This document shows positions 3,642 through 23,278 of a stretch of DNA of 64,000 bases, in pieces. The notes beneath the pieces are model-generated. The model was not told where the DNA came from. It did no database searches and saw nothing but the letters and a program-made list of their open reading frames with translations. Each line of letters begins with the position of its first letter. Position 1 is the stretch's first letter. The position numbers were made by a program, and so were the translations under genes. The DNA lies in the NCBI RefSeq assembly GCF_054482595.1, contig NZ_CM137008.1; one strand, written 5' to 3'.

Positions 3642-3663
3642 AATGTGAGTCAGCTCACTCATT
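3642..3663 (+). promoter_or_regulatory. CAP (CRP) binding site of the lac promoter
   Basis: aatgtgagtcagctcactcatt; TGTGA...TCACT half-sites intact, one substitution (tcagc vs K-12 ttagc). Confidence 0.8.
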
Positions 3664-3676
3664 AGGCACCCCAGGC

Positions 3677-3706
3677 TTTACACTTTATGCGTCCGGCTCG
3701 TATGTT
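3677..3706 (+). promoter_or_regulatory. lac promoter Plac (-35 tttaca 3677-3682, 18-bp spacer, -10 tatgtt 3701-3706)
   Basis: ggctttacactttatgcgtccggctcgtatgttgtgtg, classical lacP architecture. Confidence 0.85.
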
Positions 3707-3712
3707 GTGTGA

Positions 3713-6825
<3,113 letters not shown>

Positions 6826-15822: not shown

Positions 15823-17709
15823 TTACTCTTCCATCGCCTGGCGGATCTGATCCAACGACGCCGGATCATCAATGGTCGTCAGATCCCCCGGATCGCGTCC
15901 TTCGCAAATCGCCTGGATCGTGCGGCGCAGCATTTTTCCGGATCGCGTTTTTGGCAATTGCGAGACAAACCAGACGTGCGCCGGGCGGCCAAAGTTGCCA
16001 ATCTGGCTGTCCACCAGCGCCATAATCGCCTTCTCTTGCGAATGCGCCACATCACGATCTTCCAGACTGTCGCTCTCTTTCGGAATGACAAACGCCACCG
16101 CCACCTGCCCTTTCAGCGCATCGTTCACCCCAACCACCGCCACTTCGGCAACGCCCGGATGACTGGAGATACTCTCTTCAATCTCGCGCGTCCCCAGCCG
16201 ATGCCCGGCAACGTTAATTACATCGTCAGTGCGCCCGAGAATAAAGTGATAACCGTCAGCGTCACGGATGCCCCAATCAAAGGTGGCGTACACCGGGCGG
16301 GAAAACAGCGACCAGTAAGTCTTCACAAAGCGGTCGTCGTCGCCCCAGATGGTCTGAATACAGCCCGGCGGCAGCGGCCCTTCCACCACCAGCATCCCTT
16401 TCTCGTTGACGCCACACGGTTCGCCGGTGACTTCATTAAGCAACTGCACGTTATAGCCATACATCGGCACGCCGGGGCTTCCCAGACGCGTCGGCCTGTC
16501 GTCCAGACCGCGAGCAATCGCCATAATCGGCCAGCCGGATTCGGTCTGCCAGTAGTTGTCGATAACCGGCACATCCAGCGTATTGCTTACCCAACTGGCG
16601 GTTGGCTCGTCCAGCGGCTCCCCCGCCAGATAGAGTACTTCCAGCGACGAAAGATCGTGTTTGCGAATTTCAGCGGTAGGGAATTTTTTCAGCACGCGAA
16701 TGGCGGTCGGCGCCGAGAACATCCGGCTAACCTGATATTTCTCGACGATTTTCCACCACACGCCGCAGTCCGGCCAGGTCGGTAATCCTTCGTAAACGAT
16801 AGTCGCCATCCCCGCCAGCAGCGGCGCGTAGACGATATACGAATGCCCCACCACCCAGCCGATATCCGAAGCACAAAAGAACACACCGCCCGCTTTGCCG
16901 CCAAAAATGGTGTCCATCGAGGTCGCCAGCGCCACCGCATATCCGCCGACGTCACGCTGCACGCCTTTAGGTTTGCCGGTCGTGCCGGAGGTGTAGAGAA
17001 TGCAGGAGGTTTCGTTGGATTCCAGCCACGCCACCGGTACCCGCGCGCCGATGTGTTGATGGCGCAACGACGCGAAATCGACATCCCGCCCGCTGACGCG
17101 CGCCATTTTCGCCAGCCCGCGATCCACCAGCAAAACATGGCGCGGCTGGTGCTGCGCCTGACTTATCGCATCGTCGAGCAATTTTTTATAGGGAATGATT
17201 TTGCCACCGCGCGCTCCGGCATCAGCCGAGACAATCAGCACCGGTTTAGCATCATCAATTCGCGCCGCCACGCTATGAGAGGCAAATCCACCAAACACCA
17301 CCGAGTGAATAGCGCCAATGCGCGCGCAAGCCAGCAGGGTTATATGCGCTTCGGCAATCATCGGCATATACACCAGCACCCGTTCGCCACGCTGCACGCC
17401 CAGTGAGCGCAGCATTGACGCCACCGCGTTCACTTCGTCATGCAGCTGACGAAAGGTAAAGGTGCGCTCTTCTTCTGTTTCCGAAGAGACGGCAATCAGC
17501 GCCAGCGCCTCTGGCTGTTTCTCCAGCCAGCGATCGATAGCGTTGTGACACAAGTTGGTTCGGCCTTCACAAAACCAACGGGCAAACGGCGGATTGCTGT
17601 GATCGAGCGTTTGCGTAAAGGGCGTCTGCCAGTCAATACGCCGGGCCTGCTCGGCCCAGAACTGCTCCGGTTCGTTAATCGAACGCTGATAAAATTCGCT
17701 AAAAGACAT
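15823..17709 (-). CDS. prpE: Propionyl-CoA synthetase PrpE (628 aa)
   Basis: Acyl-CoA synthetase (AMP-forming) fold, last gene of the prp operon. Confidence 0.95.
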   Translation of the reverse strand: MSFSEFYQRSINEPEQFWAEQARRIDWQTPFTQTLDHSNPPFARWFCEGRTNLCHNAIDRWLEKQPEALALIAVSSETEEERTFTFRQLHDEVNAVASMLRSLGVQRGERVLVYMPMIAEAHITLLACARIGAIHSVVFGGFASHSVAARIDDAKPVLIVSADAGARGGKIIPYKKLLDDAISQAQHQPRHVLLVDRGLAKMARVSGRDVDFASLRHQHIGARVPVAWLESNETSCILYTSGTTGKPKGVQRDVGGYAVALATSMDTIFGGKAGGVFFCASDIGWVVGHSYIVYAPLLAGMATIVYEGLPTWPDCGVWWKIVEKYQVSRMFSAPTAIRVLKKFPTAEIRKHDLSSLEVLYLAGEPLDEPTASWVSNTLDVPVIDNYWQTESGWPIMAIARGLDDRPTRLGSPGVPMYGYNVQLLNEVTGEPCGVNEKGMLVVEGPLPPGCIQTIWGDDDRFVKTYWSLFSRPVYATFDWGIRDADGYHFILGRTDDVINVAGHRLGTREIEESISSHPGVAEVAVVGVNDALKGQVAVAFVIPKESDSLEDRDVAHSQEKAIMALVDSQIGNFGRPAHVWFVSQLPKTRSGKMLRRTIQAICEGRDPGDLTTIDDPASLDQIRQAMEE

Positions 17710-17748: not shown

Positions 17749-19200
17749 TTAAATGACGTACAGGTCGAGATACTCATTGACCGGCATCTGTTCCAGGCGA
17801 GTTCTGTCGAGAGAAACCTCCAGAATGCGCTGCTGCTGGCGAGTCGGGAACTGGCGCGCGAGATTGATTTTGAATTTATCCACCAGCTTCGGAATGCCAT
17901 CCTGACGGCGGCGAGCATGACCAATGGGGTACTCCACCACCACTTCTTCAAAGCGCGTGCCGTCGGTGAACTCAAGAGTAATGGCATTGGCGATGGCGCG
18001 TTTTTCCGGGTCGTGGTAGTCAGCGGTAAACGCCGGATCTTCAAAGCAATTGATCTTCTCGCGCAGGGCGTCGATGCGTTTATCTTGCGCAACGTTGTCC
18101 TCGTAATCTGCCGCCGTTAAGCGCCCGAACAGCAGCGGGATCGCCACCATGTACTGAATGCAGTGGTCGCGGTCTGCCGGGTTATTGAGCGGCCCCTTTT
18201 TGTCGATGATGCGAATACAGGCTTCGTGGGTGCGGATGGTCACTTTTTCGATATCTGCCGCCGTTTTGCCTGCTGCCTGCATCTGTTCATAGAGCGTCAT
18301 CGCTGCTTCAACTGCCGTCTGGGAGTGGAACTCCGCCGGGAAGGAGATTTTGAACAGCACATTTTCCATCACGTAAGAACCGTACGGACGCTGGAAGCGG
18401 AACGACTCACCTTTAAAGGAGACGTCATAGAAGCCCCACACAGGCGCAGTCAGGGCTGACGGGTAACCCATTTCGCCCGTTTTCGCCATCAGTGCCAGAC
18501 GTACCGCGCGGGAAGTGGCATCGCCCGCCGCCCAGGATTTACGCGTGCCGGTGTTCGGCGCATGGCGATAGGTGCGCAGCGACTGACCGTCCACCCACGC
18601 CAGCGAAACAGCGTTGAGAATTTCCTCGCGGGTCAGGCCAAGCATTTCGGCGACCACGGCGGTGGAAGCCACTTTCACTAACAGAACGTGGTCGAGGCCG
18701 ACGCGGTTAAAGGAGTTTTCCAGCGCGATGCAGCCCTGAATTTCATGGGCTTTAATCATTCCGGTCAGCACCTGTTTCATGGTCAACGGCGCTTTGCCGC
18801 TGGCGACCGCGTTGCGCGAAAGCCAGTCTGCCGTTGCCAGAATGCCGCCGAGGTTGTCGGAAGGATGGCCCCACTCTGCCGCAAGCCAGGTATCGTTGAA
18901 ATCGAGCCAACGGATCATCGCGCCGATGTTAAATGCCGCCTGGACGGGGTCGAGCTGGAACTGAGTTCCGGGGACGCGCACGCCGTTAGGTACGACGGTG
19001 CCGGGGACAATTGGCCCCAGCAGTTTTTTACAGGCCGGGTATTCGAGAGCTTCAAGACCGCAGCCGAGCGTGTCGAGCAGGCAGTAATGTGCGGTGTCGT
19101 AGGCCACTTTGGAGCTGATTTCGTAGTTCATCACGTAATCGACGATATCAACGATTTCACGATCAAATTCCGGGCGGATGTTGTTGATTTGAGCTGACAT
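17749..19200 (-). CDS. prpD: 2-methylcitrate dehydratase PrpD (483 aa)
   Basis: MmgE/PrpD family, [23 protein letters not shown]... Confidence 0.95.
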
Positions 19201-19233
19201 TGGGTACGTTTCCTTATTGTTATTCGTAGAGGT

Positions 19234-20403
19234 TTACTGGCGCTTATCCAGCGCGACAAACTGGCGGTCTTCCGGTCCAACATAATTGGCGGAAGGACGG
19301 ATAATTTTGTTGTCCTGACGTTGTTCGATAATGTGCGCCGCCCAGCCGGTGACGCGAGCGATAACAAACAGTGGTGTGAACATCTCGGTGGGAACGCCCA
19401 TCATGTTGTAGGAAACAGCGGAGAACCAGTCGAGATTGGGGAACATCTTTTTGCTCTCCCACATCACCGTTTCCAGGCGATCGGCGATGTTGTACATCTT
19501 CAGCGAGCCGCCTTCCTGCGAGAGCTGCTTCGCCACACGTTTAATCACCTGGTGGCGCGGGTCGGCGATGGTATAAACCGGATGCCCAAAACCAATGACC
19601 ACTTCTTTGTTTTCCACGCGCTTGCGGATATCTGCTTCGGCTTCGTCTGGCGTTTCGTAGCGTTGCTGGATCTCCAGCGACACTTCATTCGCCCCGCCGT
19701 GTTTCGGCCCGCGCAGTGCGCCAATCGCGCCAATAATCGCGGAATACATATCAGAGCCGGTGCCCGCAATCACCCGACTGGTAAAGGTGGAAGCGTTAAA
19801 CTCGTGTTCGGCGTACAGCACCAGCGAAATATGCATCGCCTTTTCCCAGCTTTGCGACGGCTTTTCGCCGTGCAGCAGATGCAGGAAGTGACCGCCGATG
19901 GAGTCGTCATCGGTTTCCGGCTGGATGCGTTCGCCGTTATGGCTGTAGTGATACCAGTAGAGAAGAATCGAGCTAAGTGACGCCAGCAGTTTGTCGGCAA
20001 TATCCCGCGCGCCAGAGACGGTATGCCCCTCTTTTTCTGGCAGCGTGCAGCCGAGCGCGGAAACGCCGGTGCGCATAACATCCATCGGGTGTGACGCCGC
20101 CGGTAAGGCTTCCAGCACGGTACGCACGTTAGCCGGTAAACCGCGCAGGGCTTTCAGTTTCGTTTTGTAGGCGGCGAGTTCGTCACGGGTCGGCAGTTTG
20201 CCGTGGATCAGCAGATGCGCCACTTCTTCAAATTCGCAATGTTCCGCCAGATCAAGAATATCGTAGCCACGGTAATGCAAGTCATTGCCACTTTTACCCA
20301 CGGTGCAGAGCGCCGTATTGCCCGCCGGAACGCCAGAAAGCGCCACAGATTTTTTCGGTTTAATGACATGGGTACTGTTTTGCAGGATCGTTGTGTCGCT
20401 CAT
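19234..20403 (-). CDS. prpC: 2-methylcitrate synthase PrpC (389 aa)
   Basis: Citrate synthase family; start set at [19 protein letters not shown] because the longer ORF extends into a REP element. Confidence 0.92.
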
Positions 20404-20445
20404 ATTGTCCTCGTCATTGTTATCATTTGTAGGGTCGAGATTGTT

Positions 20446-20530
20446 GTCGGATGCGACGCCATGCGTCTTATTCGACCTACAGTTCAGTACACCCGTAGGC
20501 CTGATAAGCCGCGTCAGCGGCGCATCAGGC
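20446..20530. repeat. REP pair between prpB and prpC
   Basis: gtcggatgcgacgccatgcgtcttattcgacctac ... gtaggcctgataagccgcgtcagcggcgcatcaggc. Confidence 0.75.
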
Positions 20531-20562
20531 ATCGGTTGTCGAATACAACCAACGGGCGTTTT

Positions 20563-21453
20563 TTATTTCACCTGGCTACGGGCAAACAGGTCGTCGAGCT
20601 TCGCTTCGTACTGGTAGTAGTTGATGCTTTCGTACAGCTCGTTGCGGGTCTGCATGGTGTCGATGACACTTTTCTGCGTGCCTTCCTGACGCAGGACGTT
20701 GTAGACATGCTCAGCGGCGCGGTTCATGGCGCGGAACGCTGAAAGCGGGTACAGCGCCATTGCGACATGGGCGCTGCGTAATTCGTCGATGGTAAACAGC
20801 GGCGTTGCGCCAAATTCGGTAATATTGGCGAGGATTGGCACCTGCACCGCATCGGCAAACTGGCGGTACATGGCGAGTTCGGTAATCGCCTCCGGGAACA
20901 ACATCTCGGCACCCGCTTCAACATAGGCCTGCGCACGCTCGATCGCCGCATCCAGCCCTTCTACCGCCAGCGCATCGGTGCGCGCCATGATCACAAAATC
21001 AGGATCGGTTTTCGCATCCACCGCCGCGCGGATCCGATCCACCATCTCCTCTTTCGAGACGATCGCTTTGTTCGGGCGATGACCACAGCGTTTTGCACCA
21101 ACCTGATCTTCAATATGCAATCCCGCCGCACCGGCTTTAATCATCGATTTCACCGTACGCGCAACGTTAAAAGCAGAAGAACCAAAACCGATATCCGCAT
21201 CCACCAGCAGCGGCAGCGAACAAACGTCGGTGATACGGCGAATATCTGTCAACACGTCATCAAGAGTAGAAATACCGAGATCGGGCAGCCCCAGCGACCC
21301 TGCCGCCACGCCACCGCCGGAGAGATAAATTGCCTGATATCCGGCACGCTGCGCCAACAGCGCATGGTTGGCGTTGATGGTGCCAACAATCTGCAATGGA
21401 TTTTCTTTAGTCAGTGCAGCGCGAAACGCTTTACCTGGGGAGTGTAGAGACAT
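20563..21453 (-). CDS. prpB: 2-methylisocitrate lyase PrpB (296 aa)
   Basis: PEP mutase/isocitrate lyase superfamily, [48 protein letters not shown]. Confidence 0.95.
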
Positions 21454-21500
21454 AGCCCATCCTTTGTTATCAACTTGTTATTTGCGTTGATAAACACAAA

Positions 21501-21516
21501 GCAAGGGGTGTGCCAC
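21501..21516 (-). promoter_or_regulatory. Sigma-54 (-24/-12) promoter of prpBCDE
   Basis: Minus strand reads TGGCAC-ACCCC-TTGC (GG and GC elements at correct 5-bp spacing) about 50 bp upstream of prpB; divergent prpR encodes a sigma-54 activator. Confidence 0.75.
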
Positions 21517-21691
21517 AATTGCCTTAATAAAATTAAATCTTTAATTTCAATTCGTTAGAGATAAAGTCATGAACTAATCCGCAAATATGCGTTTCAGTTA
21601 ACGTTTCAGGCAATGTTTCACCGCGTTTCATTGCAACAATTATGAAACAAGACTAAACCCAATATTCGGTTTCTTAACTTTGCGGTGCGCT

Positions 21692-23278
21692 ATGGCACAT
21701 CCACCACGGCTTAATGACGACAAACCGGTTATCTGGACGGTATCTGTAACGCGCCTGTTCGAGCTGTTTCGCGATATCAGCCTCGAGTTTGATCACCTGG
21801 CGAACATTACCCCTATTCAGCTTGGCTTTGAAAAAGCAGTGACCTACATCCGCAAGAAACTGGCAAACGAACGCTGTGACGCCATCATCGCTGCTGGCTC
21901 TAACGGCGCGTACCTGAAAAGCCGCCTGTCAGTGCCAGTTATTTTGATTAAACCGAGCGGCTACGATGTGTTACAGGCACTGGCAAAAGCCGGAAAGCTC
22001 ACCTCTTCTATCGGCGTTGTCACTTATCAGGAAACTATTCCGGCACTGGTGGCGTTTCAAAAAACCTTTAATTTGCGCCTCGATCAACGTAGCTACATTA
22101 CCGAAGAAGACGCACGCGGGCAGATTAACGAGCTAAAAGCTAACGGCACCGAAGCGGTGGTCGGCGCGGGGCTGATTACCGATCTGGCAGAAGAAGTCGG
22201 AATGACCGGAATTTTTATCTATTCCGCCGCCACCGTGCGCCAGGCGTTCAGCGATGCGCTGGATATGACGCGCATGTCGTTACGCCATAACACTCACGAT
22301 GCTACCCGTAACGCCCTGCGTACTCGTTACGTGCTGGGCGATATGCTCGGTCAATCACCACCGATGGAACAAGTACGGCAGACTATTTTGCTGTATGCCC
22401 GCTCCAGTGCAGCGGTGTTGATTGAGGGGGAAACGGGGACGGGCAAAGAGCTGGCGGCCCAGGCGATTCATCGGGAATATTTTGCCCGCCACGATGCGCG
22501 ACAGGGCAAAAAGTCGCATCCGTTTGTTGCCGTCAACTGCGGGGCGATAGCCGAATCGCTGCTGGAATCGGAGCTGTTTGGCTATGAGGAAGGGGCGTTT
22601 ACCGGCTCGCGACGCGGAGGTCGCGCCGGGCTGTTCGAAATTGCCCACGGCGGTACGCTGTTTCTGGATGAGATTGGCGAAATGCCGCTACCTTTGCAGA
22701 CTCGCCTGTTACGGGTGCTGGAAGAAAAAGAGGTTACTCGCGTCGGCGGGCATCAGCCTGTTCCGGTGGATGTGCGGGTCATTAGCGCCACTCACTGCAA
22801 TCTGGAAGAAGATATGCGGCAAGGGCAGTTTCGCCGTGATCTGTTTTATCGGCTGAGTATTTTGCGTCTGCAATTGCCACCACTGCGCGAGCGGGTGGCA
22901 GATATTCTGCCACTGGCGGAAAGTTTTTTGAAAGTGTCTCTGGCGGCGCTCTCCGCCCCATTTTCTGCTGCATTACGCCAGGGGTTACAGGCAAGTGAAA
23001 CTGTGCTGCTGCGCTACGACTGGCCGGGCAATATTCGTGAACTGCGCAATATGATGGAGCGACTGGCGCTGTTTTTAAGTGTGGAACCGACGCCGGATTT
23101 AACGCCGCAGTTTTTGCAGCTGCTACTGCCGGAACTGGCGCGCGAGTCGGCGAAAATTCCCGCTCCACGCTTGCTGACACCACAACAGGCACTGGAGAAA
23201 TTTAAAGGCGATAAAACAGCAGCGGCGAATTATTTAGGCATAAGCCGGACGACGTTCTGGCGGCGGCTGAAAAACTGA
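21692..23278 (+). CDS. prpR: Sigma-54-dependent activator of the prp operon PrpR (528 aa)
   Basis: AAA+ sigma-54 interaction domain (GETGTGKE Walker [16 protein letters not shown]), C-terminal Fis-type HTH. Confidence 0.93.

Follow-up and report, generated by a model that had tools for sequence, protein, structure and literature searches.

The region between prpB and prpR in the 64-kb stretch of DNA analyzed here (the window) is very probably the native E. coli control region of the propionate (2-methylcitrate cycle) operon, composed of a sigma-54 promoter and a PrpR enhancer. A preliminary description of the same DNA, made from its letters alone, had placed both elements in a prpR-prpB divergent region and considered them expected biology. 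The region 21454-21691 was found to be the exact spacer between two start codons, that of prpB (ATG at 21453, minus strand) and that of prpR (ATG at 21692, plus strand). The judgment on novelty was also appropriate, since the prpBCDE promoter and its control by PrpR, sigma-54, IHF, and CRP have been studied since 1997. Promoter and enhancer are already known, textbook-level and experimentally characterized, and the propionate-inducible pPro vectors as well as several propionate biosensors have been built on this promoter and its control. Only the rearranged proximal PrpR site, a feature specific to Escherichia, is mildly new. The case also has a calibration value, as a sigma-54 promoter and its enhancer were recognized correctly from raw sequence without tools.

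The Propionate Locus and Its Regulator Gene

The window belongs to E. coli. A 438-bp query centered on the spacer was 100% identical to strain AR_0085. Of 5,426 complete E. coli genomes, 5,219 contained it, always with the flanking genes annotated as prpB and prpR. The gene prpB (20563-21453, minus strand), encoding methylisocitrate lyase, reached 558 bits with its NCBIfam equivalog and is the first gene of prpBCDE. It was followed on the same strand by prpC (about 19234-20403), prpD (17749-19200), and prpE (15823-17709), all of them above the NCBIfam equivalog cut-offs. The plus-strand open reading frame starting at the ATG at 21692 (21692-23278) encodes PrpR, a sigma-54 enhancer-binding protein, and matched the NCBIfam PrpR equivalogs with 1002 (cut-off 703 bits) and 880 bits. 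This gene is intact, codes for 528 amino acids and adjoins the spacer that holds the prpB promoter. The protein contained the Pfam domains PrpR_N (sensor), sigma-54 activation (PF00158, AAA+), AAA-lid and a C-terminal HTH_8, with the Walker A motif GETGTGKE and a sigma-54-contacting L1 loop reading GAFTGS (residues about 300-305).

The same GAFTGS loop was seen in PrpR of Escherichia, Citrobacter, Kluyvera, Photorhabdus, and Herbaspirillum; the canonical GAFTGA was seen in the orthologues of Janthinobacterium, Massilia, Rugamonas, Oxalobacteraceae, and Xanthomonas. A truncation to about 423-457 amino acids, with loss of the C-terminal HTH_8, was seen in many PrpR protein clusters of E. coli. 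In strain SCU-484, prpR is annotated as a pseudogene with an internal stop; its half-site array was intact, as was the core of its sigma-54 element, with one base different in the N5 spacer. A decay of the regulator seems to be under way in some lineages of E. coli.

Two further observations concern the surroundings of the locus. The prpB-prpC spacer (20404-20562) measured 159 bp and carried one REP-like palindromic unit (gcctgatgcg...cttatcaggcctac), while that of K-12 measures 439 bp; hence, the REP/BIME content inside the operon differs between the two strains. Additionally, the lac promoter CRP site (TGTGAGTCAGCTCACT; TGTGAGTTAGCTCACT in K-12) and the lac operator GGATAACAATTTCACA were found at about 3644-3738 among the matches to the CRP pattern, so that the window spans lacI-lacZYA through prpR, as on the K-12 map.

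The Sigma-54 Promoter of prpB

A -24/-12 element of prpBCDE, TGGCACACCCCTTGC, runs from 21515 to 21501 on the minus strand, with its GG (21514-21513) and GC (21502-21501) doublets exactly 10 bp apart. It was the single exact match to TGGCAC-N5-TTGC in the window and perfect to the pattern. The preliminary description had reported this element on the minus strand upstream of prpB, where it is indeed present, but had extended it to 21516, one base too far (the preceding G); the true limits are 21501-21515, and the difference had no consequence. The extended 17-mer GTGGCACACCCCTTGCT (21516-21500, minus strand), which contains the element, did not differ between the window and K-12. The bare pattern is weak evidence and is not significant alone, as 0.31 occurrences were expected by chance per window and at least one appeared in 27 of 100 shuffles. 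The weight of the element comes instead from its position, its orientation, its conservation and published binding data.

Regarding these data, a sigma-54 ChIP-seq peak of K-12 (OS01, FAT 17) lies upstream of b0331 prpB and its motif is the very same 17-mer (PMC4591121). RpoN holoenzyme also binds the prpR-prpB spacer in vitro, giving a peak in genomic SELEX (gSELEX; PMC8743547). The homologous site of Salmonella, TGGCATAGCCTTTGC, was bound by sigma-54 in ChIP-chip, and the expression of prpBCDE in that organism was 45-fold higher in the wild-type than in the ΔrpoN strain (PMC3844500). The identity with the OS01 motif and the sigma-54 dependence of the bound Salmonella homologue corroborated the initial reading of this element as a sigma-54 promoter.

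In K-12, the predicted start lies 36 bp from the prpB gene, and the status of this promoter in EcoCyc, as of 2015, was "predicted" (PMC4591121). When the rule of that study was applied to the window, the prpB transcription start was predicted at 21489 on the minus strand, 36 nt before the prpB ATG. It would lie 19 nt from the motif center, with the C of the -12 GC 12 nt upstream of it; its exact position is a prediction from these distances.

Furthermore, all 15 orthologous loci in which prpB is divergent had TGGCA[CT]-N5-TTGC facing prpB, 29-48 nt before the ATG. These loci included Escherichia albertii, E. marmotae, four Citrobacter, Kluyvera, and two Photorhabdus, together with three Oxalobacteraceae/Burkholderiaceae, Xanthomonas massiliensis, and one Burkholderiales MAG.

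The Probable PrpR Half-Site Array

Five YGTTTCA half-sites, located at -102 to -159 from the predicted prpB start, formed a putative PrpR upstream activating sequence (enhancer) at 21589-21649. On the plus strand, GTTTCA was present at 21591-96, 21603-08, 21615-20, and 21625-30; read in the prpB sense, these four co-oriented copies are TGAAAC at -141, -131, -119, and -107, and their starts were separated by 10, 12, and 12 bp, close to one turn of the helix. The fifth copy lay on the minus strand at 21643-48 (GTTTCA in the prpB sense). The seven-nucleotide half CGTTTCA was exact at 21590, 21602, and 21624, and TGTTTCA occurred at 21614 (plus strand) and at 21649→21643 (minus strand). The last plus-strand copy and the minus-strand copy made up an exact distal dyad, GTTTCAT-tgcaacaatt-ATGAAAC (21625-21648, arms 21625-31 and 21642-48), 44 bp upstream of the prpR ATG. 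The repeated gtttca/tgaaac motifs that had been described between 21585 and 21650, as well as the dyad among them, were therefore recovered as five copies within 21591-21648.

This half-site cluster is far beyond chance. In the 64 kb, 44 copies of GTTTCA/TGAAAC were present, five of them within 58 bp. A cluster of at least five was obtained in none of 20,000 random placements (window-corrected Poisson probability about 7e-7), and five copies were reached in none of 20,000 Markov-1 simulations with the spacer's own composition.

The repeats had been proposed as candidate PrpR binding sites, and this assignment was strengthened by two comparisons: the hexamer matches exactly one half of the consensus CGTTTCATGAAACG from the literature, and the block aligned base for base with Salmonella-type loci that carry the exact 14-mer. 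This sequence is given as the consensus of the Salmonella PrpR enhancer, with 2-methylcitrate as the signal, in the account of PMC4987338 (citing Palacios & Escalante-Semerena 2004). DNase I footprinting of PrpR is reported for Salmonella DNA. PrpR, sigma-54, IHF, and CRP are required for prpBCDE expression according to reviews, and prpR, ntrA, and ihf were needed for transcription in Salmonella, as related in PMC4987338 and in a review citing the primary work. The PrpR footprint in the literature consulted is one on Salmonella DNA. By their sequence, the half-sites of the array are those that PrpR would be expected to contact in E. coli, and the binding geometry suggested for the E. coli proximal site is an extrapolation by analogy.

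Conservation of the Half-Sites

Since independence from the motif choice of the preliminary description was wanted, all strand-collapsed hexamers of the prpR-prpB spacers were counted over nine independent lineages, ranging from Escherichia to Betaproteobacteria. GTTTCA/TGAAAC was the most enriched hexamer, with 32 copies observed against 0.53 expected from flanking coding DNA, and it was present in eight of the nine lineages. The hexamers ranked next (GAAACA, ATGAAA, CGTTTC, and AAACGT) were overlaps of GTTTCA. A pyrimidine preceded the hexamer in 29 of the 32 instances, so the half-site was defined as YGTTTCA. The helix-turn-helix of PrpR was kept alongside the half-site, with the sequence LGISRTT[FL]WR in orthologues from Escherichia to Oxalobacteraceae.

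At least one GTTTCA/TGAAAC was found 74-206 bp upstream of the TGGCA[CT]-N5-TTGC facing prpB in 14 of the 15 loci, and at least two were found in 13 loci, a range of distances that leaves out two copies of the hexamer in prpB leaders. The spacer of Xanthomonas massiliensis had variant words only. In loci with both orientations, the GTTTCA-oriented copies were generally on the prpR side and the TGAAAC-oriented copies on the prpB side; in the Citrobacter and Salmonella-type loci, the two orientations alternated. The arms of the distal dyad were invariant in Escherichia, Salmonella-type loci, and Citrobacter, and Kluyvera was one base off (ATAAAC in one arm). Most of the dyad spacer (TGTTGCAA in the prpB sense, window 21632-21641) was as conserved as the arms. 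The word TGTTGCA differs from the half-site TGTTTCA at a single position, and seven of the nine lineages had TGTTGC/GCAACA in their spacers; the dyad spacer may be a degenerate extra half-site or part of the prpR promoter.

Within E. coli, six strains chosen to cover the identity range from its highest to its lowest values were identical in the half-site array and in the part of the spacer next to prpR, while the substitutions gathered between array and promoter, in the A/T-rich stretch. For promoter engineering, this means that the block 21589-21649 was invariant in the six strains and that variation is tolerated in the A/T-rich spacer.

Five betaproteobacterial PrpR orthologues (58-61% identity) were excluded from the comparison of architectures, because prpB was not within 2.5 kb and other genes lay upstream. 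In two of them, the upstream gene was of the GGDEF type, and in another it was a gene of more than 709 amino acids preceded by TGGCACGCTGATTGC. Several of the five retained TGAAAC/GTTTCA upstream of prpR.

IHF, CRP and the prpR Promoter

A candidate IHF bending site, assigned with low confidence, was found at 21531-21557 (about -42 to -68), where three overlapping matches to WATCAANNNNTTR, each with one mismatch, were detected. This stretch is A/T-rich and was the most variable part of the spacer, both within E. coli and between genera. Its position would be right for a bend, but the sequence is suggestive only.

An alternative explanation, to which we give a rather small probability, is that the GTTTCA/TGAAAC repeats, in part or as a whole, have a role other than in the activation of prpB by PrpR and serve CRP, the sigma-70 elements of prpR or mainly the autoregulation of prpR by PrpR. 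According to PMC9452892, in a passage citing Lee et al. (2005), a CRP site overlaps the PrpR operator and its mutation abolished the regulation by PrpR; hence, not every conserved base of the array need be there for PrpR. A single CRP site has also been said to serve both divergent promoters. Nevertheless, no match to TGTGA-N6-TCACA with up to three mismatches was detected in 21500-21680, the half-site array included. The spacer held only two three-mismatch matches to the CRP pattern, at 21483-98 and 21684-99, which were at chance level and were discarded.

As for prpR itself, the array ends 44 bp from its ATG, so the promoter or leader of this gene must overlap the array, and K-12 PrpR is labeled "dual regulator" in RefSeq; PrpR may regulate its own gene. 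The invariance of the distal dyad spacer TGTTGCAA across four genera is likewise more than a simple dyad needs. On the other hand, the scan of 21400-21750 with the sigma-70 consensus found no prpR promoter. The combination TTGCAA-N17-TAAACC, noticed by hand inspection, was weak and is not claimed as one.

One point against the CRP and prpR explanation is that the hexamer tracked the PrpR orthologues into Betaproteobacteria, where, to our knowledge, a CRP regulon is not expected. Moreover, the hexamer corresponds to the half-site of the consensus described as footprint-derived in PMC4987338. Control by CRP or of prpR would be an overlay on the PrpR enhancer, which remains the main explanation, and not a replacement of it. 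The least probable reading, which takes the -24/-12 match and the repeats for chance features of an A/T-rich spacer without regulatory role and could appeal to the 36% G+C of the spacer and to the bare sigma-54 pattern in 27% of shuffled windows, was refuted by the position and orientation that both elements kept across the 15 loci and by the sigma-54 occupancy measured in vivo on the identical sequence (PMC4591121); the random placements and simulations of the array also speak against it.

An Escherichia-Specific Arrangement of the Proximal Site

The E. coli K-12 promoter prpBp (b0331; pPro vectors) corresponds to the same locus, and both its 17-mer and its whole half-site array were identical to those of the window. 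The two spacers differed at three single bases, none of them in a motif: two were in the A/T-rich spacer and one was at about -6.

The comparison was extended with an exact probe of metagenome contigs, the 18-mer of the sigma-54 site of Salmonella LT2 (PMC3844500). Four of the matches encoded divergent PrpB (91% identity) and PrpR (79% identity or more). The spacer of these Salmonella-type loci reads ...cGTTTCAtaaatgttgcaaTGAAACggggtgattCGTTTCATGAAACGttagctgacacg... and contains a distal dyad identical to that of the window plus, at the proximal site, a perfect copy of the 14-mer CGTTTCATGAAACG, aligned with the position of the E. coli array. The likeness with E. coli covered the divergent prpR/prpB genes, the TGGCA[CT]-N5-TTGC 36-38 nt before the ATG, the identical dyad GTTTCAT-N10-ATGAAAC and the identical right half of the proximal site, TGAAACGTTA. 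That right half alone was invariant at the proximal site across the aligned genera.

The rest of the proximal site differed. In the Salmonella-type loci and Citrobacter it is a perfect 14-bp palindrome, whereas in Escherichia it reads ttgccTGAAACG, with the left half lost (ttgcc instead); the full palindrome was missing from the E. coli spacer. Furthermore, Escherichia had two additional TGAAAC copies at -131 and -107 that were missing in the other aligned genera, Citrobacter reading CTGACACG there. With these copies, Escherichia has four co-oriented half-sites 10-12 bp apart. The spacer between the array and the promoter was also about 10-25 bp shorter in Escherichia.

For Salmonella, Palacios & Escalante-Semerena (2004) reportedly described two dyad-symmetric PrpR sites, of which the promoter-proximal one had the higher affinity. 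The output of the E. coli system is, per review, roughly three-fold weaker than that of Salmonella prpR-PprpB. It is conceivable, though doubtful, that the proximal PrpR site was remodeled in Escherichia from the palindrome CGTTTCATGAAACG into co-oriented, helically phased half-sites, that this alters the assembly of PrpR and that it could underlie the weaker output; the link between the rearrangement and the output is speculation. Phased runs of co-oriented half-sites were also present in the betaproteobacterial loci. Therefore, the layout in Escherichia falls within the range of variation of the family and is not an oddity, and PrpR may tolerate, or even prefer, arrays of single half-sites over strict dyads. 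For promoter engineering, the architecture of the Escherichia proximal site has to be distinguished from the palindrome of Salmonella and Citrobacter.

Proposed Mode of Action

In the proposed mechanism, RNA polymerase with sigma-54 would occupy TGGCAC-N5-TTGC (21515-21501, minus strand) as a closed complex that is unable to start alone. PrpR, encoded divergently from 21692, would bind the YGTTTCA array (21591-21648) through its C-terminal Fis-type helix-turn-helix. Its N-terminal domain would sense 2-methylcitrate, formed from propionate via PrpE and PrpC, and give rise to an active AAA+ oligomer, which the A/T-rich spacer, presumably bent by IHF, would carry to the promoter. ATP hydrolysis by PrpR would then open the promoter and allow the transcription of prpBCDE from near 21489. 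The PrpR sites would also overlap the promoter region of prpR.

This arrangement resembles that of the NtrC-glnAp2 class in the fixed-spacing GG/GC promoter, the activator sites about 100-160 bp upstream, the A/T-rich loop assisted by IHF, and the AAA+ activator, which combines a loop of the GAFTGA type with a Fis-type helix-turn-helix at the C terminus. It departs from that class in three respects: the sensor of PrpR is the ligand-binding PrpR_N (2-methylcitrate) instead of a phosphorylated receiver, the L1 loop of enteric PrpR is GAFTGS and the half-site is YGTTTCA, that of NtrC being TGCACC.

The prpB Leader

The predicted prpB 5' leader (21454-21488, minus strand) has the Shine-Dalgarno AGGA at 21463-21460 and an ATAACAA word just 5' of it. 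An inverted repeat, TTATCAAC/GTTGATAA (21493-21486 and 21474-21467, 8 + 8 nt with an 11-nt loop), extended over the predicted start and early leader. It was nearly invariant in Escherichia (TTATTAAC in one strain), and its core ATCAAC/GTTGAT was invariant in Citrobacter and Kluyvera. A leader hairpin was rejected, as its fold (-8.5 kcal/mol, z = -1.1) was like that of shuffles and the repeat was missing from the Salmonella-type loci. An exact match to the IHF consensus, TATCAACTTGTTA, was located inside this inverted repeat at 21468-21480. The Rfam scan of 21300-21850 gave no RNA family at E ≤ 1.

The word (G/A)ATAACAA was observed directly 5' of the Shine-Dalgarno in prpB, prpC, and prpD (minus strand, 21464-21471, 20417-20424, and about 19212-19225, respectively), not in prpE; the prpB leaders of Photorhabdus and of the Salmonella-type loci contained it too. 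GATAACAA had eight occurrences in the window, where 1.9 were expected. The A-rich triplets around the ATAACAA word (AAU AAC AAG) resemble the Hfq distal-face (ARN) motifs; because of this likeness, the region of the word is a possible candidate for a translational control element.
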